DNA from: Acidobacteriota bacterium
GTDB lineage: Bacteria > Acidobacteriota > Terriglobia > Terriglobales > Acidobacteriaceae
Direction: 5' to 3'
Assembly: GCA_021826695.1 (NCBI GenBank)
Contig: JAKAYS010000001.1
Span: 7,175 to 71,174, forward strand
DNA: 64,000 nt
In this document: positions 24,226-39,459 of the stretch, piece after piece
Layout: each line of letters begins with the position of its first letter
How positions within the stretch are numbered: the stretch's first letter is position 1
Notes under the pieces: model-generated
What the model was told of the DNA's origin: nothing
What the model saw: only the letters and a program-made list of their open reading frames with translations
Databases searched by the model: none
Position numbers and translations under genes: made by a program

Positions 24226-24409
24226 AAATTTCTTCTTTTATCCAGTGCCCCCGCTTCATGCTGCTTTATGGCAGAGCCGGTCGGAACCCGTCAATGCTCT
24301 CCGCTGGCACTGCGATGAACGCGCAGAAGAACGCGCGGCATTGACTGAACCCGCCTCGCCTCTGCCCGCCGCAAGGACATGAAGCGGGGGCACTCAACAA
24401 AAGAAATTT
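24226..24409. repeat. Long inverted repeat: 17-bp perfect core within about 32-bp imperfect arms, about 117-bp spacer, just upstream of ardC
   Basis: AGTGCCCCCGCTTCATG at 24244-24260 and its exact reverse complement CATGAAGCGGGGGCACT at 24378-24394. The flanking AAATTTCTT... arms also pair. Confidence 0.85.
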
Positions 24410-24482
24410 GGTTGAGAGCCACAGGCGAAATGCCCTCCTTCAGAATCTCGCTCCACGCGGGCAACACAGGAGAGCAAACGTC

Positions 24483-25499
24483 ATGGCATATCGCAACCAT
24501 CGCAACGCAGCCAGCAGGTCGAGCATCTATCAGACCGTCACCGACCGCATTATTTCCAGCCTCAAAGTAGGCGTAATTCCGTGGGAAAAGCCGTGGAAGA
24601 CGCCGCGCTACGCAGGCGGCCCATTCCCACGCAACTTCTATACCGGCAAGCCCTACCGTGGCATCAATGTTCTCTTGCTTTGGTCGAGCGAATACAACTC
24701 CCCATTCTGGCTTACCTTCAAGCAGGTCCAGGCACTCAAAGGCAACGTCCGCAAGGGTGAGCATGGAACGCAGATCATCTTCTACAAGCAGCTTCCCGAA
24801 TATGCAAAGAAAGACGAGGAAGCAACGGGCGAAGATGAGCGCGTTCCTTTTGTTCTCTGCCACTACACGGTTTTCAACGTGGAGCAGTGCGACGGCCTCA
24901 CGCTTCCTGAAATCTCGCAGCCCGCCATCGCGCCGGAGATTGACGAAGACGAAATCTGCGAAAGCATCGTTACCGGATGGGAGAATCGGCCCGCGCTCCA
25001 TCTCAACAACCCCACCGAGTACCGCGCTTACTACCGGCGCTCTACCGATTCCGTCCACATGCCCGCCCGTAGCCGCTTTGTGGATGCGCCGCACTATTAC
25101 AGCACCTTATTCCACGAGCTGATTCATAGCACAGGACACGAAGGCCGCCTGAATCGTACCTTTGGCGATCTTTTCGGAGATGAGCTTTACAGCAAGGAAG
25201 AATTGGTTGCCGAGATGGGCGCAGCTTTCCTTTGCGCTATCGCTGGTATCGCCAACGAGCACACCGACCGGAATACCACCGCATACATTCAGAACTGGAT
25301 TGAAAAGCTGGAAGAGGATAATCGCCTTATCGTTCATGCCGCCGCCAACGCGCAGAGAGCCGTGGGCTTAATTCTCGGCAGCACCTTTGAGGAAGAGAAC
25401 GAGACGAGTGAAAACGCCGGAGATGCCGCTGTCAGCGGCATCCCCGCAGCCGTTGCGGTGAATATCGTTCCAGCAGTCTACGGTCATGCTCATCTCTGA
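24483..25499 (+). CDS. ardC: ArdC-like antirestriction protein (ssDNA-binding N-domain plus zincin-like metalloprotease domain)
   Basis: YQTVTDRIISSLKVGVIPWEKPW, GKPYRGINVLLLW, FWLTFKQVQALKGNVRKGEHG, HELIHSTGH (HExxH). AGGAG upstream of ATG 24483. Confidence 0.85.
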   Translation: MAYRNHRNAASRSSIYQTVTDRIISSLKVGVIPWEKPWKTPRYAGGPFPRNFYTGKPYRGINVLLLWSSEYNSPFWLTFKQVQALKGNVRKGEHGTQIIFYKQLPEYAKKDEEATGEDERVPFVLCHYTVFNVEQCDGLTLPEISQPAIAPEIDEDEICESIVTGWENRPALHLNNPTEYRAYYRRSTDSVHMPARSRFVDAPHYYSTLFHELIHSTGHEGRLNRTFGDLFGDELYSKEELVAEMGAAFLCAIAGIANEHTDRNTTAYIQNWIEKLEEDNRLIVHAAANAQRAVGLILGSTFEEENETSENAGDAAVSGIPAAVAVNIVPAVYGHAHL

Positions 25500-25915
25500 G
25501 CAGTGACCGGATGCTTCTGTCCGGCCCGCAGATATTCCGAGGGTGTGATAATGCGCGTCCCCTTGTACGCGCCGAGAATCAATAAATCCTTGTCGCCTGC
25601 AACCAGCAAATCCGCTTTCGCAAGGGAGGCGCACTCCAGAAACATATCATCGTTAGGATCACGGCAGACCTTTACCGTGCTTCGAATCTTCACACGAATG
25701 CCACGTGCCAAAATCGTTTGCAGCGCCGATGTTGCCCGGTGTTGTTCCCAGGAGAATTTTTCCGTCAGGACGCGCACAATCTCCGCGTCAATCTCATCGC
25801 AGGTAGCAATTACGTCTTCGCTCATCGCTTTTTCAAGCGCCCGCGTCGGTGTGCCGCGACCTTTCGCAAACTGAAGCGCGGAAATCCAGACGTTTGTGTC
25901 TACGACGACGATCAC
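25490..25915 (-). CDS. PIN-domain toxin
   Basis: MIVVVDTNVWISAL..., later acidic residues (CDEIDAE, DPNDDMFLE); 141 aa. 4-nt overlap with the upstream antitoxin. Confidence 0.8.
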   Translation of the reverse strand: MIVVVDTNVWISALQFAKGRGTPTRALEKAMSEDVIATCDEIDAEIVRVLTEKFSWEQHRATSALQTILARGIRVKIRSTVKVCRDPNDDMFLECASLAKADLLVAGDKDLLILGAYKGTRIITPSEYLRAGQKHPVTAQR

Positions 25916-26205
25916 CCGTTAGACCGCAACTTGCGGCGCGGCTTCCCGGCACGCACTTCTTTAATGAGCCGGGGCACATCAGCTTCGGTGTAGCCCTTGG
26001 GGTTGCGGCCCGCCGCGTACTCGCCCAATTCATCCAGTGTCCGCCGCGCCTGCTGTGCGGAGTAGGTGCGGAAGGCTTCACGGAATAGCTCGCTCATGGT
26101 GCGGCTGTCCCGCTGTGCCAGGGCCTCGGCCCTCCGTGCGAGTTCGGGCGGGAGGCTGATCGTGTAGACCTTCGATTTCCTTGCAGTCGCAATAGCCATA
26201 CTCAA
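25912..26205 (-). CDS. Ribbon-helix-helix (CopG-like) antitoxin
   Basis: KVYTISLPPELARRAEALAQRDSRTMSELFREAFRTY; 97 aa. Confidence 0.75.
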   Translation of the reverse strand: MSMAIATARKSKVYTISLPPELARRAEALAQRDSRTMSELFREAFRTYSAQQARRTLDELGEYAAGRNPKGYTEADVPRLIKEVRAGKPRRKLRSNG

Positions 26206-26415
26206 ATATTACGCTGTAATGGGTTCCATTACAATCATTGGAGGAATGCCTTGGGATCAGCAAGATACGTGTGCGATAGTAAAGGTGACTCATAGGAAAA
26301 ACGCAGGCCCCATGCCTCCGGCGACCAAGAACCAGAACCCGGAACAGATTGCCTGCGACCAGATCGACGCGAAGCTGGCCGATGAGCATATTCGTGCCGC
26401 GCACGGGAGCACGAT

Positions 26416-28782
26416 GTGAATACCGAAGCCGATACCTGCCGGAAATACGTCGTCCCCAAACTGCTCGCGCTTGGTTGGGACAGCGACCCCCATTCCATTG
26501 CCGAACAGCGCACAATTACCGACGGTCGCGTGATTCCTGTTGGTAAGGAAGGCTTCATCCGCAAGCCGCCTAAGCGGGTTGATTATTTGTTGCGATATAC
26601 GCGGGATTTTCCGATTGCCGTTGTCGAGGCGAAGGCCAGCTACAAAACAGCGACCGACGCCGTTCAACAGGCGCGCCTGTACGCGGAAATGCTTGATCTG
26701 AAATTCGCCTATGCGACGAACGGCACCGACATCATAGAGATCGACTATTTCACCGGCACAGAAAAGCAGATTCCCGACTTTCCCAAGCCGGATGACTTAT
26801 GGCACCGCTATCAAACGGGAAGCGGAATCACCGCGCCACAACAGGCCGACCAGCTCATAGCCCCTTACAACACGATTGGTGGGAAGCCGCCCAGGTACTA
26901 CCAGCAAATTGCGATCAACCGCACGGTCGAAGCCATCCTTGCCGGAAAGCGCCGCTTGCTTCTCACTATGGCGACCGGCACGGGCAAAACCATCGTCGCC
27001 TTTCAAATCTGCTGGAAACTATGGTCAAGCCGCTGGAATCGGACGGGCGAACATCGCAAGCCGCGCATCCTCTATCTTGCCGACCGTAACATCCTTGTGG
27101 ACGACCCGAAAGACAAGACATTCACACCGTTCGGGGACGCACGGTACAAGATTGAATCCGGCGAAGTCGTCAAGAGCCGCGAAATGTACTTCGCCATCTA
27201 TCAGGCGCTTGCCGAGGACGAGCGCCGCGCCGGATTGTTCCGCGACTATCCGCCCGATTTCTTCGACCTGATTATCGTTGACGAGTGCCACCGTGGAAGC
27301 GCGCGCGACGACAGTTCATGGCGCGTCATTCTTGAGCATTTCAAACCGGCGTTCCAGCTTGGCATGACGGCGACGCCTCTACGTGAGGACAACCGCGATA
27401 CCTATTTGTATTTCGGGAATCCCCTCTACCAATACAGTCTGCGCCAGGGCATCGACGACGGCTTTCTTGCGCCGTACCGCGTCCACCGTGTTGTCACACA
27501 ATGGGACGCGGCGGGCTGGCGTCCGAGCAAGGACGAGGTTGACCGCTTCGGGCGCGCCATCCCTGACGATGAATATGAGACAAAGGATTTTGAGCGCGTT
27601 ATCGCCTTGCGCGCGCGCACCCAGGCGATTGCCCGCCACCTGACGGACTTCCTCAAGAAGACCGACCGCTTTGCCAAAACCATCGTTTTTTGCGTGGATC
27701 AGGAACACGCATCCGAAATGCGTCAGGCATTGGTCAACCTGAATTCAGATATTGTGGCGCAGTACCCGGATTATGTCGCCCGCGTCACCGCCGACGAGGG
27801 AGCCATCGGGCGCGGGCACCTGTCCAAGTTCCAGGACTTAGAAACCAAAACGCCCGCAATCCTGACTTCCTCTCAGCTTCTCACCACCGGCGTTGACGCC
27901 CCGACTTGCAAGAACGTTGTGCTCGCCCGCGTCGTCGGCTCCATGAGCGAGTTCAAGCAGATCATCGGGCGCGGCACGCGCCTGCGTGACGATTACGGTA
28001 AGCTCTGGTTCAACATCATTGACTACACCGGCTCCGCAACGCGAATGTTCGCCGACAAGGAATTTGACGGAGAGCCGACGCGCATCACTGAAGAGGAGAT
28101 GAATGAGTCCGGCGAAACAGGGTCAACGACCGAAATCATCCCCGAAGGGCAGGAGCCGCCGCCGGAGGAAGAATCCGGCCCTATCATCACCGAGCCGCCC
28201 ACGGGCGAGCCTCGAAAGTTCTACTTTGACGGCGGGCAAGTTGAGATCGTGGCTCACCTCGTCCACGAGCTTGACCCCAACGGCAAACAGCTTCGCGTCG
28301 TGAAGTATACGGACTACGCCGCCGAAAGCGTCCGTTCGCTTGCGCCCACATCCGCAGACCTACGCCAGAGATGGGCAGACGCGGATAAGCGAAGCGAGAT
28401 TATCGCCGCGCTTAACGAGCGCGGCATCGACTTCGATCAATTAGCGGAGCAGACAGGGCAGACGGATGCTGACCCGTTCGACTTGCTTTGTCATCTCGCT
28501 TTCAACGCGCCGCTTCGCACACGCCGCGAGCGCGCACAACGGCTCAAATCTGAGCGGAAGGATTACTTCGAGAAATTCTCTCCCGAAGCCCGTCGGGTGC
28601 TTGATGAGCTTCTGGAAAAATACGCGGAACACGGTGACGCACAGTTTGTCTTGCCGGACGTGTTGAAGGTTCCACCCATCTCCAGTCACGGACAGCCCGC
28701 CGAGATCATGAAGCTGTTCGGGGGCCCCATCCCGCTTCGGCAAGCCGTAAACGAACTGCAAGGACTCCTCTATGCCGCGTAG
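26416..28782 (+). CDS. hsdR: Type I restriction enzyme R subunit (EcoEI-like, with EcoEI-R C-terminal-type tail)
   Basis: NTEADTCRKYVVPKL nuclease N-domain, helicase motifs (MATGTGKT, VDECHRG, LTSSQLLTTGVDAP, QIIGRGTR). Confidence 0.9.
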   Translation: MNTEADTCRKYVVPKLLALGWDSDPHSIAEQRTITDGRVIPVGKEGFIRKPPKRVDYLLRYTRDFPIAVVEAKASYKTATDAVQQARLYAEMLDLKFAYATNGTDIIEIDYFTGTEKQIPDFPKPDDLWHRYQTGSGITAPQQADQLIAPYNTIGGKPPRYYQQIAINRTVEAILAGKRRLLLTMATGTGKTIVAFQICWKLWSSRWNRTGEHRKPRILYLADRNILVDDPKDKTFTPFGDARYKIESGEVVKSREMYFAIYQALAEDERRAGLFRDYPPDFFDLIIVDECHRGSARDDSSWRVILEHFKPAFQLGMTATPLREDNRDTYLYFGNPLYQYSLRQGIDDGFLAPYRVHRVVTQWDAAGWRPSKDEVDRFGRAIPDDEYETKDFERVIALRARTQAIARHLTDFLKKTDRFAKTIVFCVDQEHASEMRQALVNLNSDIVAQYPDYVARVTADEGAIGRGHLSKFQDLETKTPAILTSSQLLTTGVDAPTCKNVVLARVVGSMSEFKQIIGRGTRLRDDYGKLWFNIIDYTGSATRMFADKEFDGEPTRITEEEMNESGETGSTTEIIPEGQEPPPEEESGPIITEPPTGEPRKFYFDGGQVEIVAHLVHELDPNGKQLRVVKYTDYAAESVRSLAPTSADLRQRWADADKRSEIIAALNERGIDFDQLAEQTGQTDADPFDLLCHLAFNAPLRTRRERAQRLKSERKDYFEKFSPEARRVLDELLEKYAEHGDAQFVLPDVLKVPPISSHGQPAEIMKLFGGPIPLRQAVNELQGLLYAA

Positions 28783-30370
28783 TAAATCAAACAAGAACGG
28801 CGCAAACAGCGCCGCGCCGATGACCACATCCCAAATGCTCGGAAGCCTTCTCAAATCCGCGCGTGACATCATGCGCAAGGACAAGGGACTGAATGGCGAT
28901 CTTGACCGCTTGCCGTTGCTGACGTGGATTATGTTTTTGAAGTTCCTTGACGATATTGAAATACAGCGCGAGGAAGAAGCCGAGCTTGCCGGAAAGAAAT
29001 TCAAGCCCGCTGTCGAAAAGCCGTATCGCTGGCGCGATTGGGCGGCAAACCCGCAGGGCATCACCGGCGATGAATTGCTCGCCTTTATCAATAACGATGA
29101 AGCTGTGCGCGCCGACGGAAAGAAGGGCGCGGGGCTGTTTGCTTACTTGCGCGCGCTGTCCAGTTCCAACGGCGACAACCGCCGCGACGTTATTGCCACC
29201 GTGTTCAAGGGCGTCGATAACCGTATGAAAAGCGGTTATCTCCTGCGAGACATCATCAACAAAGTCGCCGCCATCCACTTCACATCGTCCGATGAATTGC
29301 ACACTCTGGGCGCGCTTTACGAATCCATGCTCCGTGAAATGCGCGACGCGGCGGGCGACTCCGGCGAGTTTTACACGCCGCGCGCCGTCGTCCGCTTTAT
29401 GGTCGAAGTCACTGACCCGCGACTTGGTGAAACCGTGCTTGACCCCGCGAGCGGCACAGGCGGCTTTTTAGTCGAATCCTATAACCACCTTGAGAAACAG
29501 GTGAAGACCGTCGCCGACCGCAAGCGGCTCCAAACGGAAACCCTCAGTGGGTGCGAGCCGAAATCCCTGCCTTACCTTCTGTGCCAGATGAATCTTTTGT
29601 TGCACGGATTGGATGCGCCGCAGATCGACCCGGAGAATGCGCTTCGCTTCAAACTCTCCGAAATCGGCGAGAAAGAGCGCGTGGACGTGATTCTTACGAA
29701 CCCGCCCTTCGGCGGGGAAGAGGAACGGGGCATCCAGGGTAACTTCCCCGAAGACCGGCAGACCTCCGAAACGGCGCTCTTGTTCCTTCAACTCATCATG
29801 CGCAAGCTCAGGCGCCAGCAAACCGCCGCCAAGCGTCCGGCGCGAGCCGCCGTTGTCGTACCCAACGGCACGCTTTTCGGTGACGGCGTATGCGCGCGCA
29901 TCAAGGAAGAGCTGTTGAAGGACTTCAACCTTCACACCATTGTGCGGCTACCGGAAGGGGTATTCGCTCCCTACGCGGATATACCTACCAACATCCTGTT
30001 TTTTGACAGATCGAAATCAACGGACGACATTTGGTTCTACGAGCACCCACTTCCAGAAGGACGCAAAAAGTACACAAAAACAAAACCACTTCAGTACAGC
30101 GAGTTCGAACCATTGCTGAACTGGTGGGGTGCTCGCGTGGAGAATGAGTGCGCATGGAGGGTCCAGGCCAAGTCTTTCTTCGACGCATCCGAAGGACGCC
30201 AACTTGCTATAAATTTTGATCTTCGCAATCCGAATGCGACCAGGCAGGTCGATCCTCGAACAACGATCGAAATTCTTTCTGATATGGAGGCGAACGAGCA
30301 AGCAATCATTGCACTCGTCCGAGAACTGAAACTTCTCACTTCATCTCAGCTAAAGACGGGGACCGAGTGA
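28772..30370 (+). CDS. hsdM: Type I R-M N6-adenine DNA methyltransferase subunit
   Basis: GEFYTPRAVV, DPASGTGGFL, LTNPPFGG. Overlaps the hsdR stop by 11 nt. Confidence 0.92.
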   Translation: MPRSKSNKNGANSAAPMTTSQMLGSLLKSARDIMRKDKGLNGDLDRLPLLTWIMFLKFLDDIEIQREEEAELAGKKFKPAVEKPYRWRDWAANPQGITGDELLAFINNDEAVRADGKKGAGLFAYLRALSSSNGDNRRDVIATVFKGVDNRMKSGYLLRDIINKVAAIHFTSSDELHTLGALYESMLREMRDAAGDSGEFYTPRAVVRFMVEVTDPRLGETVLDPASGTGGFLVESYNHLEKQVKTVADRKRLQTETLSGCEPKSLPYLLCQMNLLLHGLDAPQIDPENALRFKLSEIGEKERVDVILTNPPFGGEEERGIQGNFPEDRQTSETALLFLQLIMRKLRRQQTAAKRPARAAVVVPNGTLFGDGVCARIKEELLKDFNLHTIVRLPEGVFAPYADIPTNILFFDRSKSTDDIWFYEHPLPEGRKKYTKTKPLQYSEFEPLLNWWGARVENECAWRVQAKSFFDASEGRQLAINFDLRNPNATRQVDPRTTIEILSDMEANEQAIIALVRELKLLTSSQLKTGTE

Positions 30371-31593
30371 TGCTTTCTGAATTTGTCCCTTTAGGTGAAT
30401 ACCTATCAGTGCGCGAAGAGCAGCCAGATGCCACCGCTGTTCTCGAAGGCACGATTCCCATCGTTGCGAAGGTTCGGTTCGCGGATGGTGCCATAGAACT
30501 CCGACCTACCAACACAACTCAAACAAAACTCATTCTTGTTCGTCCCGGAGATATTTTGATCTCTGGCATTAACGCACTCAAAGGTGCCATCGCGCTATAT
30601 CCATCGAATGCATCAACGGATATTGCGGCAACAATTCACTACAGTGCCTATAGCGTGAACGAAGACGCCGTGTTGCCCGTCTTCATACACGAATATCTCC
30701 GAAGCTCAAGTTTCAGGAAGCGCGCAGTTGCCCAACTCCCTTCAGGGATAAAGACAGAGCTGAAATCGAAGAGGCTACTTCAAATTCGCGTCCCGAAACC
30801 ATCTAAGGAAGAACAAGAGGCCCGTATACGAGCCCTTTTCGCTAAGCGCCGACGAATTGCAGAACTGTATGCAAGGCGTAAGCCGGAAGGTGCCATGATC
30901 CTGGGTCGCCGCGTTACCGTTGCTGCGGAAGCTCGTCGAGCCATTGCATCCCGCCTAGCTGAATTCGAGAGAGACATTTTGGTTGAATACAAGGTCGGCC
31001 GGCTAGAAGACTACTTGGTCTGCAACCTTCGTCACGGCATTTCAACGCCATGCAGCGCAGACGCAGACGGCCCGCCAGTCCTAATGCCATCTTCAACAAC
31101 CGGGTTTGTTCTAGACACGTCTAGAGTGATGTTCGCTGTCTCTAACAGCGACATCCGGGATGATGATTATCTTGAGCCGGGAGATATCATATTCGCGCGT
31201 GGGAATAAGCCGGATCAAGTCGGCAACTGCGGCGTTTATGAAGGAGAGAGCGGTTGTACAACTTTTGCCAATCTGTTCATGCGCTTACGCATCGATCAAA
31301 AGCAATATCTCCCTTGGTTTGCACAATACTGGCTAATGACACCTTGTGTCAGAGAGCATGTGCGAAAGTTTACCAAGGGGACAGGGCCGTCCATTCAGAA
31401 AATCAATGGGCAAGGCGTAAAAGCCATCCCGTTTCCCGATGCAGTACCTCTTGACGTGCAGACTTCGTGGATCAAACATTTGACCAGTTTCCGGCGAATT
31501 TCCTCTCGCGTTGAATTGCTCCAAGTGCTGCAAGCTAAAGAGTTGGAGATTCTTGCTGAGCGAGTCACCGATGAAGCGTTTTCTGGCCTTTAA
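30367..31593 (+). CDS. hsdS: Type I R-M specificity subunit (two target-recognition domains)
   Basis: 408 aa, 4-nt overlap with hsdM. Central coiled conserved region (EEQEARIRALFAKRRRIAEL) and C-terminal ...ERVTDEAFSGL. Confidence 0.8.
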   Translation: MMLSEFVPLGEYLSVREEQPDATAVLEGTIPIVAKVRFADGAIELRPTNTTQTKLILVRPGDILISGINALKGAIALYPSNASTDIAATIHYSAYSVNEDAVLPVFIHEYLRSSSFRKRAVAQLPSGIKTELKSKRLLQIRVPKPSKEEQEARIRALFAKRRRIAELYARRKPEGAMILGRRVTVAAEARRAIASRLAEFERDILVEYKVGRLEDYLVCNLRHGISTPCSADADGPPVLMPSSTTGFVLDTSRVMFAVSNSDIRDDDYLEPGDIIFARGNKPDQVGNCGVYEGESGCTTFANLFMRLRIDQKQYLPWFAQYWLMTPCVREHVRKFTKGTGPSIQKINGQGVKAIPFPDAVPLDVQTSWIKHLTSFRRISSRVELLQVLQAKELEILAERVTDEAFSGL

Positions 31594-31606
31594 TCACATG
31601 CGCTAA

Positions 31607-31681
31607 ACCGGATTCACCGCCGAACTGGACGCCATGCTCCCCGCTATTCTCGACAGGGCGTTCAAAGGAGAGTTGGTATGA
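31607..31681 (+). pseudogene. Orphan hsdS 3-prime-end remnant (24 codons) whose stop overlaps the ATG of the GHKL gene
   Basis: Translates TGFTAELDAMLPAILDRAFKGELV*, the typical HsdS C-terminal tail. An in-frame stop lies immediately upstream at 31604. Confidence 0.7.
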
Positions 31682-33681
31682 GCAATGTCAACGTCAAGCG
31701 GTTGGTCGAGAACATCCGTTCCGGCACCAATGTCTACACGCCGCTGGTCGAACTGGTCGTGAACGCGATTCAGGCCATTGACGCTAAGGGTATACAGAAC
31801 GGCTTGGTCGAAATCGAAGTGCTCCGAAGCCGGCAAACCGATATGATCGACCAGCTTGAGGACGTAGACGGTTTCGTGGTCAAGGACAACGGCATAGGCT
31901 TCACCAAAACCAACCGCGATGCTTTCGACACTCTCTACACCGAACAGAAAATCGCGGACGGCGGCAAGGGTTTTGGCCGCTTCACTTGCCTGAAATACTT
32001 TGACAGGGTGAAGGTATCCAGCACCTTTGCCGAAGGTGATACCTTCTGTGACCGTTCTTTCAGAATGGGCTTGGACAAGGACATCATCATTGACGAAAGG
32101 GAAAGCCAATCTCAGGCGCAGGCGACGGGCGCAATCGTCGAGATTTCCGGTATCAAGTCCGTAAGGTTTCCCGACAAGAAGCTGGAAACCATCAGCCGCG
32201 TCGTGGTGGAACGGCTGCTGCCCTATTTTGTGGACAAGGAGCACCGTTGCCCGCGTGTGGTGATCCGGGAGGCCCACAATCCATCTGATACGGTCTCCTT
32301 AAATGACTATTTGGGCAGGGAGAACAGCCAGATTGTCGAAATGAAGGTGGATCAAGGGGCGTTTTCGCTATCAGCGAACGAGGATGAAAAATCCTTTCAG
32401 GTTCGCGTCTTCAAATTATTCGCGCCGCGAGCGTCGAAAAGCAAGGTTAGCCTTGTCGCGCATAGGCGGGAGGTGACGGACAATCCGCTCCAAACATACA
32501 TTCCCGAATTTGCGGAAGAGTTTTTCGAGCCAGGGCCGGATCAGGATTTGGCGAAAGGTCGAAATTTCGTCATCAAAGCCTATGTTTTCGGCGACTACCT
32601 GAACGACAACGTCTCCCTCGAACGAGGCGAGTTTCGCTTTCAGATCGAAACCGACCTGTTGAACGGCATATCCCAGAACGACATCGAACAGAAAGCTGCC
32701 GAGATTGCGCAGTCGGCGTTGGGCACGGAGATCGCCGACAGGAAGACGCGCAAGCAAGTGCGTATAGACAAGTATGTAACCAATGACGCGCCTTGGCATC
32801 GCATCCTTGCAAAAGAAGTGGATTTCAGCGCCCTACCCATGAGGCCATCAAATCAGGACATCGAACTCCACCTCCAAAGGAAAAAATATGAGAAGGAGAT
32901 AGCGACGCGAACACAGGTGACGGCGCTGCTGAACTCAGAAAACCCGGACGAGCTTGGAGAGAAAATCTCGCAGTTGATCGAGAGCATTTCCGATAACAGC
33001 AAGAACGACCTGATTCATTACGTCTCTATGCGCAAATGTGTCCTGGACCTGTTTTCTAAGTCACTCGAAATCGGAGCAGACGGCAAGCACAAGTCTGAAG
33101 GTGAGGTGCATGACATCATCATGCCGCGCAAAAAGGATTCCGAAGAACTGAACTATGATGCGCACAATCTTTGGATTCTGGACGAGCGGCTGAATTTTAC
33201 GTCCTACATTTCGTCGGACAAACCCCTTCAGTCGTTGGGCGACCGCACGGACATAACCGCCTATAACCGCCGCGTGGCATATCGCGGCGACAATGAGGCC
33301 AGCAACCCCATCACGATTTTTGAGTTCAAGAAGCCCCAACGGGATGATTTTGCCGACCCGTCCTCCAGGGAAGATCCGATTCAGCAGATCATCCGCTACG
33401 TCAATCAAATCCGGGAGGGCAAGTTCAAAACTCCGACCAATCGTGACATCCTCGTCAATGACACAACGCCGTTCTACGGCTATGTCGTCTGTGACTTGAC
33501 CAAAAAGGTCAAAGACTGGCTCCAAAAAGAGAAGAACTTTACTCCGATGCCCGATGGACTTGGATGGTTCAACTGGTTCGGCAACATCAGCCTCTACATG
33601 GAGGTGATTAGCTGGACGAAGCTGCTGCGCGACGCAGAAATGCGGAACAAAATATTCTTCAACAAGCTCGGCATTGATTGA
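31678..33681 (+). CDS. GHKL (Bergerat-fold, MORC/paraMORC-like) ATPase fused to a C-terminal PD-(D/E)xK-like nuclease domain
   Basis: ELVVNAIQAID (N box), VKDNGIGF (DxGxG), GGKGFGRF. C-terminal HDII...LWILDERL...ITIFEFKKP fits D...ExK. Confidence 0.7.
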   Translation: MSNVNVKRLVENIRSGTNVYTPLVELVVNAIQAIDAKGIQNGLVEIEVLRSRQTDMIDQLEDVDGFVVKDNGIGFTKTNRDAFDTLYTEQKIADGGKGFGRFTCLKYFDRVKVSSTFAEGDTFCDRSFRMGLDKDIIIDERESQSQAQATGAIVEISGIKSVRFPDKKLETISRVVVERLLPYFVDKEHRCPRVVIREAHNPSDTVSLNDYLGRENSQIVEMKVDQGAFSLSANEDEKSFQVRVFKLFAPRASKSKVSLVAHRREVTDNPLQTYIPEFAEEFFEPGPDQDLAKGRNFVIKAYVFGDYLNDNVSLERGEFRFQIETDLLNGISQNDIEQKAAEIAQSALGTEIADRKTRKQVRIDKYVTNDAPWHRILAKEVDFSALPMRPSNQDIELHLQRKKYEKEIATRTQVTALLNSENPDELGEKISQLIESISDNSKNDLIHYVSMRKCVLDLFSKSLEIGADGKHKSEGEVHDIIMPRKKDSEELNYDAHNLWILDERLNFTSYISSDKPLQSLGDRTDITAYNRRVAYRGDNEASNPITIFEFKKPQRDDFADPSSREDPIQQIIRYVNQIREGKFKTPTNRDILVNDTTPFYGYVVCDLTKKVKDWLQKEKNFTPMPDGLGWFNWFGNISLYMEVISWTKLLRDAEMRNKIFFNKLGID

Positions 33682-33748
33682 ACGGACCAAAGAGCTGGCG
33701 CAATCAGCACATGAAGGCTCTCGTGCCCGGCAAACGATTATTGTCTGA

Positions 33749-33817
33749 ATGTCTCTGTGCCGTGCTCTGGACATCACTGTTCTCGACAAGGTGTTCAAAG
33801 GGGAGTTGTATGGTTGA
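33749..33817 (+). pseudogene. Second orphan hsdS 3-prime-end remnant
   Basis: Translates MSLCRALDITVLDKVFKGELYG*. Its DNA (33780-33813) is closely similar to 31647-31680. Confidence 0.65.
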
Positions 33818-33884
33818 CGTAGAACAATAAGGAAACTGATCGGGTGCTATCCGACAGCCGCGAATACGAAAGACGGTGGAAGCA

Positions 33885-35660
33885 ATGAAAATCGCACGAT
33901 TGCGAATCCAGAATTTTCGGGGCATCAAGGAAACAACACTTTTGTTCAACGGGCATGTTGTTCTTGTTGGCGATAACAACGTCGGCAAATCTACTATCTT
34001 TGAGGCCATCGACTTGGCACTCGGCCCAGACCGCCTCAGCAGGCATCCGAAAATCGACGAACACGACTTTTATCTTGGCGACTACCTTACGCCCGCAGAG
34101 CAACCCCGCAAGGAAGTCAAAGTCGAGGTTGTCGTTACCGGCCTTACCGATGAACAGCAGAACGTATTCGGTGACGAAATCGAGTGGTGGAATACGACCA
34201 CGAAGGCGCTTCAGGAAGCCCCCGTCGAAGGCATAGATCAGCCTGACGTGTTCGCGTCGATTCGTGTTGTATTCATCGGGTACTATGACCCGGACGATGA
34301 CGACTTCACTGGCGATACATATTTCGCCCGCAGTTATGAAGACGACGAATCCCCGGCAGTCTTCACGAAAAAGAATAAGCAGTTTTGCGGTTTTCTCTAT
34401 CTGCGCTCTCTACGCACAGCCACGCGCGCGCTCAGTCTGGAGCATGGAAGCCTTCTCGACATCATTCTGCGGATAAAGGAAATCAGGCCGCAGATGTGGG
34501 AAAAGACGATTGAACAGTTGGATAAAGTCAATGTCGCGGCAGACCCGGAAATCGGCATCTCCGGTGTGCTTGAAAGCATTGATAAATCGTTGAAGAAGTA
34601 TGTCCCGCGCGAATGGGGCGTTTCGCCCCATCTCAAGGTCTCCAACTTAACGCGCGAAAATCTACGGAAGGTCATTACCGCATTCATTGCGACGGGCGAC
34701 GGTGAGCACGCCGCGCCGTTCTACCGTCAAGGAACGGGCACCCTGAATATGCTCGTTCTCGCCATGCTGTCGCAGATCGCGGAGGACAAGCAAAATGTCA
34801 TCTTTGCAATGGAGGAGCCTGAAACGGCGATTCCTCCGTATGCACAGAAGCGCATCGTCCATGAAGTTCGGAAATTGTCCTCGCAGTCGATTTTCAGTTC
34901 CCACTCGCCTTACATCCTTGAAGAATTCGCGACGGAGGAAATCAGTGTGCTTATGCGAGGCACGGATTGCGTCCTTCAACAGGCCAGCATAGAACTCCCC
35001 GCGAGCGTGAAACCGAAGCGGTATCGCCAGGAATTCAGAACGCGCTTCTGCGAAGCATTGTTATCGCGGCGCGTTTTACTCGCAGAGGGCGCGACCGAGG
35101 CGGCGACCTTTCCGGTGGCGGCACGACGCCTCTCCGAGCTTGCCCCCGATACCTACGCCTCGTTCGAGGCTCTTGGAGTCTGCACCGTTGACGCAGGCGG
35201 CGACGGTCAAATTGCCGACCTTGGCAAACTCTACATCAATTTAGGAAAATCGGTGTACGCCGTTTGCGACCAACAGGAGCCAGCGAGTCAGGCGAAAATT
35301 GAAGCCAGTGTCACGAAGCTGTTCATGCACGGCGAGTCAGACATTGAAAAACTCGTTTTGAAGAATACGACACAGGCGGCATTAGACAGGTTTATCGACG
35401 CCATTCAATGGCCTCCGCATCTAGTGACAGCCTTCCCCAATCCCAAGTCCAATCCGGTAGACGCTTTGGGCAAATTCTTCGAGTGGTCAAAAGGCAACTT
35501 GGGGTTGGCTGAATTTATCGCGCAATGCAATGAAGCCGAAATTCCTGACTGGATTCGGCAAATGTGCCGCGACTTGCGTGACCTGTGCCAGCCGCCAGCA
35601 CCAGACTCGTCACCGGAGAATGAAACAGTCGTGGAGGCTGACCTTGCTGGAACTGTGTGA
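33885..35660 (+). CDS. gajA: Gabija GajA: OLD-family ATPase/TOPRIM endonuclease
   Basis: MKIARLRIQNFRGI, Walker A GDNNVGKST, ABC-like MEEPETAIPP, TOPRIM LLAEGATEAATFP...VDAGGDG. Confidence 0.85.
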   Translation: MKIARLRIQNFRGIKETTLLFNGHVVLVGDNNVGKSTIFEAIDLALGPDRLSRHPKIDEHDFYLGDYLTPAEQPRKEVKVEVVVTGLTDEQQNVFGDEIEWWNTTTKALQEAPVEGIDQPDVFASIRVVFIGYYDPDDDDFTGDTYFARSYEDDESPAVFTKKNKQFCGFLYLRSLRTATRALSLEHGSLLDIILRIKEIRPQMWEKTIEQLDKVNVAADPEIGISGVLESIDKSLKKYVPREWGVSPHLKVSNLTRENLRKVITAFIATGDGEHAAPFYRQGTGTLNMLVLAMLSQIAEDKQNVIFAMEEPETAIPPYAQKRIVHEVRKLSSQSIFSSHSPYILEEFATEEISVLMRGTDCVLQQASIELPASVKPKRYRQEFRTRFCEALLSRRVLLAEGATEAATFPVAARRLSELAPDTYASFEALGVCTVDAGGDGQIADLGKLYINLGKSVYAVCDQQEPASQAKIEASVTKLFMHGESDIEKLVLKNTTQAALDRFIDAIQWPPHLVTAFPNPKSNPVDALGKFFEWSKGNLGLAEFIAQCNEAEIPDWIRQMCRDLRDLCQPPAPDSSPENETVVEADLAGTV

Positions 35661-37512
35661 TGAGCGTAAGACCATCGTGTCCCACACGGGTCACTTGCTC
35701 ATCAAGGGAGGCCCCGGCTCTGGGAAAACGACCATCTCCATTGTGAAAGCGGAGAGCCTTGTCGCCACGCTCAAGCCCGGTCAGCAAGTATTGTTTCTCA
35801 GCTTTGCGCGCGCCACGGTCGCCCGCGTCATCGAAGCCCTCGCCGAGCAGACGAAAGACAACAAAGAAGTCAGGCGACGTATTGAGATCGACACGTACCA
35901 CGCTTTCTTTTGGCGATTGCTCAAAACGCACGGCTATCTCATCGGATTGCCGCGCCGTATGACCATCCTGACACCACCCGAACGGGCGATTGCGCTGACA
36001 CCAATTCGTCACACCTACGGAAGCGCACGGAAGCTCACTGACACGCAAAAAGCCGAGAAGCTGGGAAAGGAAGAAGCCGAGCTGAGCCGGTTGGCTTTCC
36101 AGGAAGGCAAGGTTTGCTTCGATTTATTCTCGGAGCTTGTTGTCGAACTCGTCAGCAAGAGCGAAAAACTGCGAAAACTTGTTTCTACCCGCTATCCAAT
36201 CATCATTCTCGACGAATTTCAGGATACGAGCGCCGGTCAGTGGGCCGTTATGGAGAACCTGGGTAGCGGCAGCACACTGATTGCCCTCGCAGATGAAGAG
36301 CAGCGTATCTACGACTTCGCGGGTGCAGACCCGGAACGTCTGAATCACTTCAAGCAGAAGTTCGACCCGAAAGAATTCAACTTCGGGTCGGCAAACTATC
36401 GGAGCAACGGAACCGACATAGCTCGTTTCGGCAACGATGTTCTGGCGGGCAAGTTCAGCATGAATAAATATGCCGGTATTGGGTTGGTGAAATTTGCCGG
36501 GAATCCCAATCAGGCTATGGCGGCGCTCAAAGGACAAACCCTTCAGACAATCGAACGACTGCGAAAAGCCAAAGTCAAAGATTGGGCTCTCGCCATCCTT
36601 GTTCCCACCAAACAGCTTATGCGTGAAGTGTCTGATGCACTCCGCGAGACACAGGGCACAATGCCGCCGGTAGAGCACAATGCCGCCATTGACATGGAAG
36701 GAGCCATTCTCGCAGCGGAATTGATTGCCTTCCTCTTACAACCACACCAGGGGGAGGCAGATTTCGCGCAGTTTGTCGGCCTGCTCAGTAATTTCTTTCG
36801 AGGCAAAGGCGGCGATGATCCCTCCGCGTCTGATATCGGAGAAGCCCTTGCAATCGAGAAGGCGCTACAGAAGGCCGTGGAGTGCTTACAGAAGGGGAAG
36901 CCGTTACCGAACAACAGCATCATTAGGCTAATGAAAGAGGGGTGCAACCAGTGCGTTGCGCTCGCGCTCACTGGCAATCCCGGTGTGGATTGGTTGGCAA
37001 TTAGAAAAGTGCTCGGTGATTGCGGTTGCAAACGATTGGCCCAGGTGGCAGAAGAAGCCAGAAATGTCAGGTTGCTGGATAAGGGAACACAACTGCGAGA
37101 GAACCTCTCTCTGGATTGGCGCACAAACGGCGCATATAAGAACGCTCTCGAAATTGTCAGACAAGCGTTCGTTCAGGAGCATTTTTCAACATCGGTCCGA
37201 AAGCAATCCGGCGTGATTGTGATGAACATGCACAAGGCGAAAGGAAAGCAGTTCGATGAGGTCATCATTTTCGAGGGATGGCCGAGGCGAGTGCGCGGCC
37301 AAATTGTTGGAAATCCTCATCGCATCGTGCGTGGGAATATGGACGGCGATCTAACGCACGCCACATACAATTTCCGGGTCAGCGTGACGCGGGCGCGGTC
37401 AAGGACGACGATAATGACGCCAGAAAACGATCCATGCATCCTCCTTGTACTTGCTTCAAGGGCGACAAAGGCGGTGGCAGCCCAAGCGGAAAATGGAACG
37501 GATACGGCATGA
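35620..37512 (+). CDS. gajB: Gabija GajB: UvrD/PcrA-like superfamily 1 helicase
   Basis: KGGPGSGKTT, ILDEFQDTS, MNMHKAKGKQFDEV, VSVTRARS. ATG 35620 overlaps the gajA end by 41 nt. Confidence 0.85.
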   Translation: MKQSWRLTLLELCDERKTIVSHTGHLLIKGGPGSGKTTISIVKAESLVATLKPGQQVLFLSFARATVARVIEALAEQTKDNKEVRRRIEIDTYHAFFWRLLKTHGYLIGLPRRMTILTPPERAIALTPIRHTYGSARKLTDTQKAEKLGKEEAELSRLAFQEGKVCFDLFSELVVELVSKSEKLRKLVSTRYPIIILDEFQDTSAGQWAVMENLGSGSTLIALADEEQRIYDFAGADPERLNHFKQKFDPKEFNFGSANYRSNGTDIARFGNDVLAGKFSMNKYAGIGLVKFAGNPNQAMAALKGQTLQTIERLRKAKVKDWALAILVPTKQLMREVSDALRETQGTMPPVEHNAAIDMEGAILAAELIAFLLQPHQGEADFAQFVGLLSNFFRGKGGDDPSASDIGEALAIEKALQKAVECLQKGKPLPNNSIIRLMKEGCNQCVALALTGNPGVDWLAIRKVLGDCGCKRLAQVAEEARNVRLLDKGTQLRENLSLDWRTNGAYKNALEIVRQAFVQEHFSTSVRKQSGVIVMNMHKAKGKQFDEVIIFEGWPRRVRGQIVGNPHRIVRGNMDGDLTHATYNFRVSVTRARSRTTIMTPENDPCILLVLASRATKAVAAQAENGTDTA

Positions 37513-37875
37513 TCGGCCGACGTGCGCGGTGCTACGCACCGGATGGAGGCGTGTCGCGGTAGGGATACGGCTTTCGCCGTACCCCCCGCACAGATCCGTA
37601 CGGGCGGATTTCCCGCATACGGCTCTTACCTCAGGTAGTGACGCGCAGACGGCGCGAAGGATAAACCCGCTGACAAACCTAAAGAAGCGTTTGTGTGGGA
37701 TGAGTCCAAAGGAATTGAGTGACGCAAAGCGCGTTTGTGAGGAAGCAATATCCCGACTGAGATTCCGTGCGTCTCCGGTTCACAAATGCGAGGTACAGAG
37801 AGCACCCATCTCAGTTTGGAAGATCGCGGAGGCCGCGACCCACCTACTCTATACTTGACCGCGTATGGAGCCTCT

Positions 37876-39459
37876 ATGAAGAAGATGGACTACACCATTG
37901 GATTCCAAGCCGGACGTGCGGGACAGAAATGGACGGCCACGGCCTTGACGGATCGAGCGAAGGAGCGGACGCCGGAAGCTGTGGCGTTCGCAGACCGTTC
38001 AGAGGCATTGACATTTCTGAAGGAGTCGCAGGCAGAAGGCTACCGATTTTCCGGCGCGGAGTTGGTGGACCCGGAGCAGAAGCTCGTTAAGAATCGCTAC
38101 TTCGTCATTGGCGGCGACGGACAGCTGACACCCGCCGGTGAGGACAATGGCCCGCGCAATACCGTTTGGGAAGTCGGAGACGTGAAGCCCGGATATGGCA
38201 GGAATGCAGGAACCGAGGCGGTCATAGAAAACATTCTGCAAGGACCCGGCGTGCGAGAAAGGTTTGGTTGCGACCTCGCGTTTCTGCTTCGTGTACACCG
38301 GGTCTTGCCGGGGACTCCCACTGTGCCGCCGATACCACCCTTCGACCCGGCGAAACCGTGTCCATGCGGTCTCCACGGGAAGCCCTACGGTGACTGCTGC
38401 CGCGATAAGGGCATCCATGCACTCGGGAACGAGATGCTGCGGGGAACGGCTCCGAGGATGGTGCCCGGGGCTCTAGCGCAAATTCAGTCCAGCATGATCC
38501 AGGGTGATACCCGGCTTCGGTTCGTCTGGAACACAGTCTGGTACTACCCGCAGCACGAGACGTTCCATCAGTTCCTTGATGCCCTTGTGTTCGGGACACT
38601 CGGCAAGGAGTGGTTTGAGGAGCAACTTCTACTTCCACTCAAGAATCAGAACGCGGTTGTCAAATGGCGCAAGGCGATGGTTGAACTGCTTCGCAGGCCG
38701 GGAGACGCGGACGACGATGTGAGCACGGGCCACACTCTCACTGGCCCGGCAAAAGCTTACCAATGTTTTGGCTACGATTTGTATTGGCTACAGTTGGTTC
38801 ACAAGCTGCCTGATTCCGTCATCAAGAGATTGAAGCATTTTCGAGACTTTCAGGGTGCGCGCTATGAGGTTCTCATCGCTGCCATTTTCGCGCGTGCTGG
38901 ATTTGAAATTGAATGGATCGACGACAACAAGGCATCTGGGAAGCACCCAGAATTTATCGCAACCCACAAAGCTACGGGAAAGAAAGTAGGCGTAGAAACG
39001 AAGAGTCGGCAACGCCCTGGAGCAATGAATTACATCGGTACGGTCTCGCCCGAAACCCATCTCAAGGGCGACGTGGATGACCTGTATAACAAGGCGATTC
39101 AACAAGCGCCCGATGGCGACATACCGTTCCTGATTTTCATTGATCCCAATGTTCCCGACAGCCCACAGAAGGGACTTCCGTCGTACTCGCATATTCCTGT
39201 CGATACGGTTCCCTGGATGAAGCAGATTCGTGACCGCCTCGTCGAGATTTGGAACGCTGCTACGGAAGCTACGCCTGACAGTGCAGTGATGGTCACAAAC
39301 TTTGCGTTTTACTATGGCGACAACGACACTCCTTCTCCTACCGGGATGGGGGCGTTCTTTCCATCGACGAAACCAAGAGTGCCGATCCTCGATGAACCGA
39401 TGGTTGCTGACCTCATTTATTGCATTCAGAGTTACGACACGGTTCCACGGCAGATATAA
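37876..39459 (+). CDS. Hypothetical SEC-C-motif protein with a C-terminal PD-(D/E)xK-like nuclease domain
   Basis: CPCGLHGKPYGDCC (SEC-C-type metal-binding motif). C-terminal ARYEVLIAAIF...HPEFIATHKATGKKVGVETKSR fits E...(P)E...ExK. Confidence 0.55.
   Translation: MKKMDYTIGFQAGRAGQKWTATALTDRAKERTPEAVAFADRSEALTFLKESQAEGYRFSGAELVDPEQKLVKNRYFVIGGDGQLTPAGEDNGPRNTVWEVGDVKPGYGRNAGTEAVIENILQGPGVRERFGCDLAFLLRVHRVLPGTPTVPPIPPFDPAKPCPCGLHGKPYGDCCRDKGIHALGNEMLRGTAPRMVPGALAQIQSSMIQGDTRLRFVWNTVWYYPQHETFHQFLDALVFGTLGKEWFEEQLLLPLKNQNAVVKWRKAMVELLRRPGDADDDVSTGHTLTGPAKAYQCFGYDLYWLQLVHKLPDSVIKRLKHFRDFQGARYEVLIAAIFARAGFEIEWIDDNKASGKHPEFIATHKATGKKVGVETKSRQRPGAMNYIGTVSPETHLKGDVDDLYNKAIQQAPDGDIPFLIFIDPNVPDSPQKGLPSYSHIPVDTVPWMKQIRDRLVEIWNAATEATPDSAVMVTNFAFYYGDNDTPSPTGMGAFFPSTKPRVPILDEPMVADLIYCIQSYDTVPRQI

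Follow-up and report, generated by a model that had tools for sequence, protein, structure and literature searches.

The window, a 64,000-nucleotide stretch of DNA from an Acidobacteriota bacterium, carries a type I restriction–modification (R-M) operon, hsdRMS, followed on the same strand by a gene for a predicted GHKL ATPase–nuclease. The genes and signals around this junction are:

26416 to 28782, + strand: hsdR, type I restriction subunit, 788 aa, first gene of the operon (Pfam ResIII, EcoEI_R_C and HSDR_N; PADLOC REase_I, E = 1.4e-217)
28772 to 30370, + strand: hsdM, type I methyltransferase, 532 aa (Pfam N6_Mtase, E = 3e-58; PADLOC MTase_I, E = 4e-194)
30367 to 31593, + strand: hsdS, type I specificity subunit, 408 aa (PADLOC Specificity_I, E = 2.3e-25; no Pfam match to this ORF)
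31607 to 31681, + strand: orphan 3′ end of a former hsdS, TGFTAELDAMLPAILDRAFKGELV followed by a stop codon (translation; identical tail in the homologous locus L009)
31665 to 31670, + strand: Shine-Dalgarno-like AAGGAG, 7 nt 5′ of the ATG, within the orphan hsdS tail (inferred from sequence)
31678 to 33681, + strand: GHKL-ATPase Shedu nuclease (VcSduA family/paraMORC3, an assignment discussed below), 667 aa (intact ORF, translation)

An earlier sequence-only reading of the window placed the last of these genes 84 nt after hsdS, behind a type I operon, and noted that its ATG overlaps the stop of an orphan hsdS tail. Both observations hold: 84 nt separate the hsdS stop from the GHKL-Shedu ATG, the preceding gene is hsdS by its Specificity_I match, and the tail, a typical HsdS C-terminus, ends in a TGA that forms part of the ATGA at the GHKL start. 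The overlap had been taken to mean that the gene was once translationally coupled to an hsdS gene. This arrangement was found at L009, a locus encoding a protein 97% identical to that of the window, where a complete hsdS of 399 aa ends on the same tail and overlaps the ATG. The inferred ancestral hsdS–GHKL coupling therefore occurs in nature.

Homology between the window and L009 DNA ends at position 30127, is absent over 30128–31625, and restarts at 31626; against two further loci it restarts at 31618 (L041) and 31619 (L019). The 3′ part of hsdM, from about 30128, is thus part of the swapped cassette, and the hsdS alleles of the window and L009 differ. The orphan tail is the scar left by an hsdM/hsdS allele swap. 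A promoter and terminator scan found none in the hsdS–GHKL spacer, and the number of sites it returned did not exceed that for shuffled sequence. The gene would be a cassette with no promoter of its own, placed last in the hsdRMS operon of a conjugative element, probably co-transcribed with hsdRMS and retaining its own ribosome-binding site. The element also bears the anti-restriction gene ardC.

Domain architecture and conserved residues

The 667-aa protein divides into four regions:

31678 to 32157, + strand: GHKL (Bergerat-fold) ATPase domain, residues ~1–160 (Pfam HATPase_c, invariant columns, Foldseek)
32170 to 32637, + strand: transducer (S5-like middle) domain, residues ~165–320 (model pLDDT 85–96, Foldseek)
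32674 to 33066, + strand: long helical arm, residues ~333–463 (DSSP of the AlphaFold model)
33085 to 33678, + strand: PD-(D/E)xK (Shedu/RecB-like) nuclease domain, residues ~470–667 (invariant columns, model)

The three Bergerat motifs recognised in the sequence-only reading are borne out by the intact ORF and by an alignment of 135 homologues. E25 and N29 (ELVVNAIQAI) are unchanged in these sequences at identities down to ~27%, D70, G72 and G74 (DNGIGF) and G95, G98 and G100 (GGKGFGRF) are the same residues in all of them, and T152 is nearly invariant. Pfam HATPase_c matches the protein at E = 1e-4, under the curated cut-off, and matches 25 of 48 family members weakly and consistently. The top Foldseek matches are HtpG/Hsp90, TopoVI-B, GyrB, MLH1 and MORC4 (E ~1e-10), with alignments of 400–520 columns that span the GHKL and transducer domains of GyrB 43K, TopoVI-B, Hsp90/TRAP1, MLH1 and MORC4. 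MORC4 is just one among many GHKL fold matches. R264 and R316 are invariant in the transducer domain, and the transducer region of MLH1 is a second, weak match of the family profile.

An AlphaFold model built on a 52-sequence alignment left the nuclease core below pLDDT 50, whereas the 135-sequence alignment, which includes relatives at 27–33% identity, modelled this core well. The mean pLDDT of the 667-aa model is 87.6, and DSSP places the helices of the arm at residues 333–369, 372–378, 392–419 and 426–463. The nuclease domain is modelled as helix-strand-strand-strand-helix-strand, an order consistent with the PD-(D/E)xK fold, with pLDDT of ~80–94 except in the loop 532–541. Its key residues are E474, H478, D502/E503, D525, E549-x-K551 and Q570-xxx-Y574, and the motif E474...D525...E549xK551...Q570xxxY574 is invariant in the family alignment. 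The proposed fusion of a GHKL ATPase, here of the MutL/MORC/TopoVI-B/Hsp90 type, to a PD-(D/E)xK-like nuclease is thus upheld.

The sequence-only reading was half right about the catalytic motif. IFEFKKP does contain the invariant E549 and K551 of the ExK element, but D502 in LWILDERL, its choice of aspartate, is probably wrong: D502 is likewise invariant, yet D525, also invariant, heads the strand that precedes the ExK strand in the model (consensus RPD, RTD in the window) and therefore occupies the canonical "PD" position. The model makes D525 the more likely catalytic aspartate.

Profile databases recover little of this protein. Whole-protein scans with Pfam, NCBIfam and PADLOC returned the sub-threshold HATPase_c match and no defence family; neither PADLOC v2.0.0 nor NCBIfam matched the protein. 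It is because of the missing PADLOC match that the protein appears unassigned. Neither a sequence search nor a whole-protein profile search of solved structures yielded anything useful (MLH1 at E = 0.1 with the profile), GHKL proteins fill every Foldseek list (PDB, BFVD) for the whole protein, and the C-terminal profile matched no Shedu chain or any other solved structure. On the C-terminal domains of family members, the commonest Pfam match is SduA_C (PF14082; 5 of 14, weak, best E = 0.0013), alongside HSDR_N and PDDEXK_9; SduA_C has no match in the window's own domain.

Relationship to VcSduA and the Shedu systems

BLASTP aligned residues 22–407 of the window protein with residues 1–399 of RefSeq VcSduA (29% identity, E = 2e-35), placing E25 opposite the glutamate numbered E27 by Adams et al., and hhalign matched VcSduA to the 135-sequence family profile with a probability of 100% (E = 4e-68). 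The motif I glutamate and the ExK lysine lie 521–545 residues apart across the family, and 530 apart in VcSduA. Adams et al. give 543 VcSduA matches (bioRxiv version, Supplementary Table 5). Among them are Aminobacter sp. MSH1 DCS14_RS03930, which shares 80% identity with the window protein across the 399 aa compared, and a Burkholderia C-terminal fragment that aligns with window residues 355–666 (30% identity, E = 6e-52). By these sequence comparisons the window protein is homologous to the published VcSduA family over its full length. At E <= 1e-30 the family comprises 885 clusters (50% identity).

VcSduA (A1552VC_00276, Vibrio cholerae WASA lineage; Adams et al. 2025, Nat Microbiol) is of the same length class as the window protein and shares its domain order of GHKL, middle domain, helical region and PD-(D/E)xK. 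It is a single-gene phage defence of V. cholerae that was dead in the E27A and K557A mutants (PMC12137116); E25 and K551 occupy the equivalent places in the window protein, in which every residue of the ATP-binding and nuclease motifs is preserved. Both genes lie in defence islands on mobile elements, VcSduA after a GmrSD-like type IV system (GrwAB) and the window gene after a type I operon. VcSduA is functional by itself in E. coli and does not depend genetically on the adjoining type IV system. It is protective at every multiplicity of infection, and the culture does not collapse (PMC12137116), which points to direct restriction and not to abortive infection. Its dimer model is confident, whereas a tetramer model is poorly supported (PMC12137116).

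The same family had been described earlier from computation as paraMORC3, a GHKL and S5 module with a C-terminal RecB-like RE-fold domain bearing E-D-ExK, sporadically distributed with a centre on Proteobacteria and Bacteroidetes, and found partly in R-M neighbourhoods and partly standalone (Iyer, Abhiman & Aravind 2008, Biol Direct 3:8, PMC2292703). The window family corresponds to this description in architecture, motif and distribution, and shows the same split between R-M neighbourhoods and standalone loci. The equation of paraMORC3 with VcSduA rests on Adams et al. (PMC12137116). Gu et al. (2025, bioRxiv 10.1101/2023.08.10.552793) reclassified paraMORC3 as Shedu type I-D and named the transducer-related middle domain "N24". 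The window gene is thus very probably a VcSduA-type Shedu (type I-D, formerly paraMORC3), a single-polypeptide anti-phage system.

Canonical Shedu SduA of Bacillus cereus and E. coli (DUF4263/SduA_C) is likewise a single-protein PD-(D/E)xK nuclease regulated by its N-terminal domain, but that N-terminus is entirely different, with small sensor domains in place of the ATPase, and the similarity between the two kinds of nuclease domain is marginal in the family and undetected for the window protein. With MutL, MORC, TopoVI-B and Hsp90 the window protein has the Bergerat fold and transducer in common. It lacks the C-terminal endonuclease/dimerisation domain of MutL and probably also MORC-specific features (paraMORCs are without the MORC signature; PMC2292703), and carries a PD-(D/E)xK domain instead, in a genomic context of defence rather than repair.

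In the mechanism that we propose, the GHKL ATPase, transducer and long helical arm control the C-terminal PD-(D/E)xK DNA nuclease. MutL and the topoisomerases couple an ATP-driven N-terminal dimerisation clamp to a nuclease, and by analogy with MutL, Hsp90 and GyrB two subunits would dimerise through their ATPase heads upon ATP binding. The dimerised heads would form a clamp round a DNA feature that arises during infection, and the accompanying conformational change would license the nuclease to cut phage DNA.

The sequence-only reading had considered such GHKL ATPases essentially uncharacterised and left undecided whether the architecture matched a named single-gene system. One exists, VcSduA/Shedu type I-D, on record since 2008 as paraMORC3 and validated experimentally in VcSduA (PMC12137116), and with this assignment to a characterised family the case for novelty falls. 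The result serves mainly to correct annotation: database entries for these proteins read "ATP-binding protein", "sensor histidine kinase" or "hypothetical", and PADLOC v2.0.0 overlooks members even though the family is large. The window offers a clean natural example of a single-gene defence cassette moving between R-M operons on conjugative elements, and illustrates the scar that an hsdM/hsdS allele swap leaves behind.

Genomic contexts and relation to restriction–modification

Homologues were recovered from Alpha-, Beta- and Gammaproteobacteria, Bacteroidota, Acidobacteriota, Cyanobacteria and others, including 61 viral or prophage contigs; a megablast search of the region against plasmids gave nothing relevant. 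Their neighbours are defence genes, comprising R-M, Gabija, SIR2-HerA and reverse transcriptase genes. Homologues frequently follow R-M genes, a point that the sequence-only reading had marked for testing with respect to hsdS: R-M genes are immediately upstream on the same strand in ~28 of 80 species-level loci. These belong to type I, MmeI/Eco57I-like type IIG (the MmeI-like context including a helicase and T5orf172), type ISP and type III systems and to HsdM-S fusions. The R-M link of the family is real, yet it has already been published. R-M genes are absent nearby in ~40 of the 80 loci.

The ATG shares nucleotides with the stop codon of the preceding gene in 20 of 77 loci, and such frequent overlap with R-M genes leaves room for functional coupling. 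The same gene is found at 88–97% DNA identity behind unrelated operons, and between the window and a locus with an MmeI operon (L002) DNA homology is confined to 31667–33685, the ORF alone. Among close homologues the partners vary or are absent, with no constant hsdR, hsdM or hsdS of one type. A role as a type I R-M subunit or obligate accessory was rejected, the partners being of type I, IIG, ISP or III or missing altogether. Given the unrelated operons and the roughly half of loci without R-M genes, the gene is best read as encoding a defence nuclease that is autonomous and shares the operons of R-M systems, and GHKL-Shedu would act beside the R-M system and not as one of its subunits.

A closer tie to restriction is conceivable in two forms, neither of them probable. 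In the first, which we regard as unlikely, the lineage evolved as a promoterless "tail cassette", a second-stage effector working with R-M operons: its conserved start, ATGAGC, may furnish the stop codon of the preceding R-M gene, so that it may slot in at the 3′ end of five or more kinds of R-M operon and be produced in fixed proportion to them, and it may, for example, load on restriction-created DNA ends and destroy the fragments. If true, the protein would serve R-M systems generally as such an effector and would not be an independent system.

In the second, which is about as unlikely, the protein is a functional partner whose full activity depends on the upstream R-M genes. It might act on restriction-made DNA ends or stalled complexes and finish cleaved phage DNA, or it might form a DNA loop joining recognition to cleavage sites, the role that Iyer et al., on purely computational grounds, suggested for paraMORCs as an R-M component (PMC2292703). 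The upstream R-M genes, the start/stop overlaps and the hsdS–GHKL coupling at L009 speak for such a partnership, as do the 602 of 5,499 Shedu genes that lie inside R-M loci, for which Gu et al. suggested complementation (bioRxiv 10.1101/2023.08.10.552793), and the sensing of DNA ends that the Loeff et al. preprint reports for other Shedu proteins. Against it, the same gene (88–97% DNA identity) stands behind operons that are unrelated, so that specific contacts between subunits are unlikely; R-M genes are missing from the vicinity of about half of the loci; VcSduA functions without its adjoining type IV system; and in the window the coupling has already given way to the 84-nt spacer while the ORF remains intact. 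New biology would come only from synergy with restriction, an idea already suggested in the literature.

Far less probable is a guard of the PrrC kind, in which the R-M complex keeps the nuclease latent until a phage anti-restriction protein frees it as a toxin and causes abortive infection. Like prrC, the gene sits within or after R-M operons, ardC lies on the same element, and in three loci an AAA_13 protein (PADLOC candidate PDC-S06) overlaps the GHKL start, AAA_13 being the Pfam family of PrrC/RloC. This reading was nevertheless rejected, since VcSduA needs no R-M partner and is protective at every multiplicity of infection, with no collapse of the culture, since the partners found upstream belong to unrelated types, and since many loci are standalone.

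Least probable of all is a role outside defence, as a sensor histidine kinase or as a MutL-like factor serving the conjugative element in repair or maintenance, which the names of some homologues ("sensor histidine kinase", "serine/threonine protein kinase") and the fold similarity to MutL/MLH1 would favour: the kinase was rejected because Pfam finds HATPase_c and HATPase_c_3 only, with no HisKA/DHp, receiver or transmembrane domain in the window protein or 48 family members, and against both roles stand the conserved nuclease motifs, the defence-gene neighbours and the defence phenotype shown experimentally for VcSduA.

Predicted fold and catalytic residues of the GHKL ATPase-nuclease

The finding of the sequence-only reading is real, and its description of the protein's anatomy was largely correct. 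The ORF at 31678..33681 (+) encodes 667 aa, and all the Bergerat-fold and C-terminal stretches quoted from it were found, with key residues invariant in an alignment of 135 sequences that includes members down to ~27% identity to the window protein. Invariant positions are E25 and N29 in motif I, D70, G72, and G74 in DNGIGF, G95, G98, and G100 in GGKGFGRF, and E474, L498, W499, D502, S513, D525, E549, K551, P567, and Q570 in the C-terminal region. Pfam returned only HATPase_c matches to the window protein, all sub-threshold, and NCBIfam and PADLOC v2.0.0 scans returned no match. The label "sensor histidine kinase" carried by some homologues is unsupported, because no HisKA domain was found.

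In a first AlphaFold model, based on 52 rather close sequences, residues 474–563 stayed unmodelled; model 2, built from 135 sequences including 27–33% relatives, has a mean pLDDT of 87.6 and a pTM of 0.77. Foldseek matches in the PDB (HtpG/Hsp90/TRAP1, topoisomerase VI-B, GyrB/ParE 43K fragments, MLH1, and MORC4; E ~1e-10 to 1e-8) span 400–520 columns, corresponding to the Bergerat fold and transducer domain.

Predicted structural elements of the window protein (AlphaFold model 2, residue numbers)
333–463, long helical arm
474–481, helix bearing E474 and H478
503–507, helix with D502 just before it and E503 at its start
510–513, strand
526–529, strand with D525 at its head
545–550, strand with E549 at its end and K551 just after it
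567–579, helix bearing Q570 and Y574
599–604, strand

The predicted order of the C-terminal elements is that of a PD-(D/E)xK core with a RecB-like QxxxY helix, and this order would place D525 (consensus RPD) at the canonical "PD" position. Of the D...ExK motif proposed earlier, E549 and K551 stand; D502, taken then as the catalytic Asp, is invariant yet precedes the first core strand. In a Pfam scan of 14 diverse C-terminal domains on their own, the Shedu nuclease domain SduA_C (PF14082; 5/14, best E 0.0013) was matched most often, ahead of HSDR_N and PDDEXK_9; the window protein's own C-terminal domain was not matched by SduA_C. A sequence-based search of solved structures with the C-terminal domain profile found none.

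Membership of the VcSduA family

The family was described as essentially uncharacterised in the sequence-only reading, a statement that does not hold, since it was predicted in 2008, classified in 2023–2025, and experimentally validated in 2025. Iyer, Abhiman and Aravind (2008, PMC2292703) defined paraMORC3 as proteins in which a GHKL+S5 module is joined to a C-terminal, RecB-like RE-fold domain bearing E-D-ExK; they are common among Proteobacteria and Bacteroidetes, some in R-M neighbourhoods and some standalone. Gu et al. (10.1101/2023.08.10.552793) placed homologues with a GHKL fold and Hsp90/MORC-like middle domain in type 1D Shedu, and found 602 of 5,499 Shedu genes within type I–IV R-M loci; the family's tendency toward such loci is thus already published. 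V. cholerae VcSduA, in which a PD-(D/E)xK (DUF4263) domain is fused to a GHKL ATPase, suffices as a single gene against Drexlerviridae in E. coli and is active against phage X29 in V. cholerae; protection holds at every multiplicity of infection, and E27A or K557A abolishes its activity (Adams et al. 2025, PMC12137116). The same authors identify VcSduA-like proteins as the former paraMORC3 and members of Shedu type I-D. What our analysis adds is modest: cassette-like movement of the gene, its built-in ATGA coupling, and the scar of an hsdM/hsdS swap.

The first 399 residues of VcSduA (RefSeq entry) align with window residues 22–407 at 29% identity (E 2e-35), pairing window E25 with the VcSduA motif I Glu, and match the 135-sequence family profile with an hhalign probability of 100% (E 4e-68). 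Supplementary Table 5 of the bioRxiv version of Adams et al. gives partial sequences for 543 MacSyFinder hits. Over all 399 residues tabulated for it, hit 124 (Aminobacter sp. MSH1 DCS14_RS03930) shares 80% identity with the window protein, and a short Burkholderia entry aligns with window residues 355–666 (E 6e-52), taking in the PD, EFK, and QxxxY motifs. The Glu-to-Lys spacing is 521–545 residues in the family and 530 in VcSduA. By these alignments and this spacing, the window protein belongs to the published VcSduA family. Exhaustive HMMER searching of representatives clustered at 50% identity recovered 2,692 clusters at E <= 0.001 (885 at E <= 1e-30), a large and uniform family in which nearly all members are 650–700 aa and match end to end.

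The defence island and the hsdM/hsdS swap

The gene lies in a defence island on a conjugative element.

Features of the defence island, in order
21753–22832 (-), IS110-family transposase, abutting the next ORF
22832–23947, truncated GmrSD/HEC-05-like ORF
24408–25499, ArdC anti-restriction protein (ardC)
25490–26205 (-), PIN/RHH toxin-antitoxin pair
5′ of 30367, hsdR and hsdM
30367..31593, hsdS, type I specificity subunit (PADLOC E 2e-25; no Pfam match)
31678..33681 (+), GHKL gene
~33885–35660, gajA (PADLOC GajA E 1.5e-256)
~35644–37512, gajB (PADLOC GajB E 5.5e-220)
37786–39459, 557-aa ORF flanked by Gabija and relaxase genes, conserved in loci L010–L012 (no Pfam or PADLOC match)
40501–43275, TrwC-type relaxase

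The ORF at 22832–23947 aligned with no more than the C-terminal portion of GmrSD_C and PADLOC HEC-05 (profile positions 245–594 of 600); it is probably the remnant of a type IV-like restriction gene that the insertion sequence truncated. A complete Gabija system (33885–37512) lies directly 3′ of the GHKL gene.

The arrangement noted earlier, with the GHKL gene behind hsdRMS, 84 nt past hsdS, and its ATG overlapping the stop of an orphan hsdS tail, is all visible in the sequence. The tail, a 25-codon frame at 31607..31681 (+) closing on the TGA within ATGA, reads TGFTAELDAMLPAILDRAFKGELV, a typical HsdS C-terminus. At the DNA level, a related locus (L009) encoding a 97% identical protein shares 90% identity with the window over 26248–30127 (hsdR and the 5′ part of hsdM), no homology over 30128–31625 (the 3′ part of hsdM and the entire hsdS), and 96% identity over 31626–37542 (the hsdS tail, GHKL gene, and Gabija), so that the GHKL-Shedu gene and Gabija travel together. 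In L009, an intact 399-aa hsdS closes on this tail, with a stop that overlaps the GHKL ATG, which bears out the proposed former coupling to an hsdS. Sequence comparison thus identifies 30128–31625 as an hsdM/hsdS allele replacement relative to L009, with the orphan tail as its scar. The 84-nt spacer showed no promoter- or terminator-like site, in a scan whose overall yield did not exceed that of shuffled sequence; AAGGAG can be read 7 nt 5′ of the GHKL ATG.

Genomic contexts and probable mode of action

Homologues 89–92% identical in Bradyrhizobium, Afipia, Acidibrevibacterium, and others are the last gene of a different operon (L002:2816–10004) encoding an HTH protein, an MmeI-like type IIG enzyme (917 aa), a 258-aa protein, a DEAD/ResIII helicase (686 aa), and a T5orf172/MUG113 protein (408 aa). 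All its stops and starts overlap, and it recurs in L005, L020–L024, L036, and L063. The 258-aa and T5orf172 proteins had no PADLOC match, and the operon may be an undescribed multi-gene R-M-like system. DNA homology between L002 and the window is confined to 31667–33685, the GHKL ORF itself. Homologues of ~55% identity follow hsdM-hsdS-hsdR (L015) or a SNF2/DUF4391/methylase/GmrSD/Res cluster (L017, L018).

In a census of 80 species-level loci from GTDB genomes, R-M genes of MmeI/Eco57I-like, type ISP, type I, type III, or HsdM-S fusion types lie directly upstream on the same strand in ~28, hsdMSR lies just downstream in two, and an AAA_13 protein (PADLOC candidate PDC-S06) is upstream in three. 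About 40 have no R-M gene nearby; their surroundings are heterogeneous and include housekeeping and conjugation genes, transposases, and Gabija-like ATPases. In nearly all loci the gene opens with ATGAGCAAYGTCAAC (MSNVN; window 31678–31692, same position in L001–L098), and in 20 of 77 assessable species-level loci the TGA inside it terminates the preceding ORF, regardless of that ORF's product.

The best-supported reading of the GHKL gene is an autonomous Shedu-type defence nuclease. Our analysis shows that the protein belongs to the family and that its catalytic residues are intact; for VcSduA, others have shown a single-gene defence that requires both its ATPase Glu and its nuclease Lys (PMC12137116). 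Synergy with an R-M partner is kept alive by the frequent stop/start overlap with upstream genes, but has a low probability given that the same gene follows unrelated operons, that about half of the loci stand alone, and that VcSduA acts independently of its neighbours. A PrrC-like guard fits poorly with the non-abortive VcSduA phenotype. In the autonomous nuclease, the GHKL heads may dimerise in an ATP-driven step and so form a clamp whose closure would control the nuclease, by analogy with MutL, Hsp90, and GyrB and with the VcSduA dimer modelled by Adams et al.

Other neighbours include a reverse transcriptase (RVT_1; L015:12248–13990) and a SIR2 and DUF87 (HerA-like) pair (L017:12090–15454, also L018), each directly 3′ of the homologue. 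The 872-aa AAA_13 ATPase of L056 (7386–10004; PDC-S06, E 1.7e-230) and its counterparts in L058 and L080, from gamma- and betaproteobacterial genomes, end in the GHKL gene's ATGA. In IMG/VR, 61 viral or prophage contigs (L099–L159) carry homologues at 24–79% identity.
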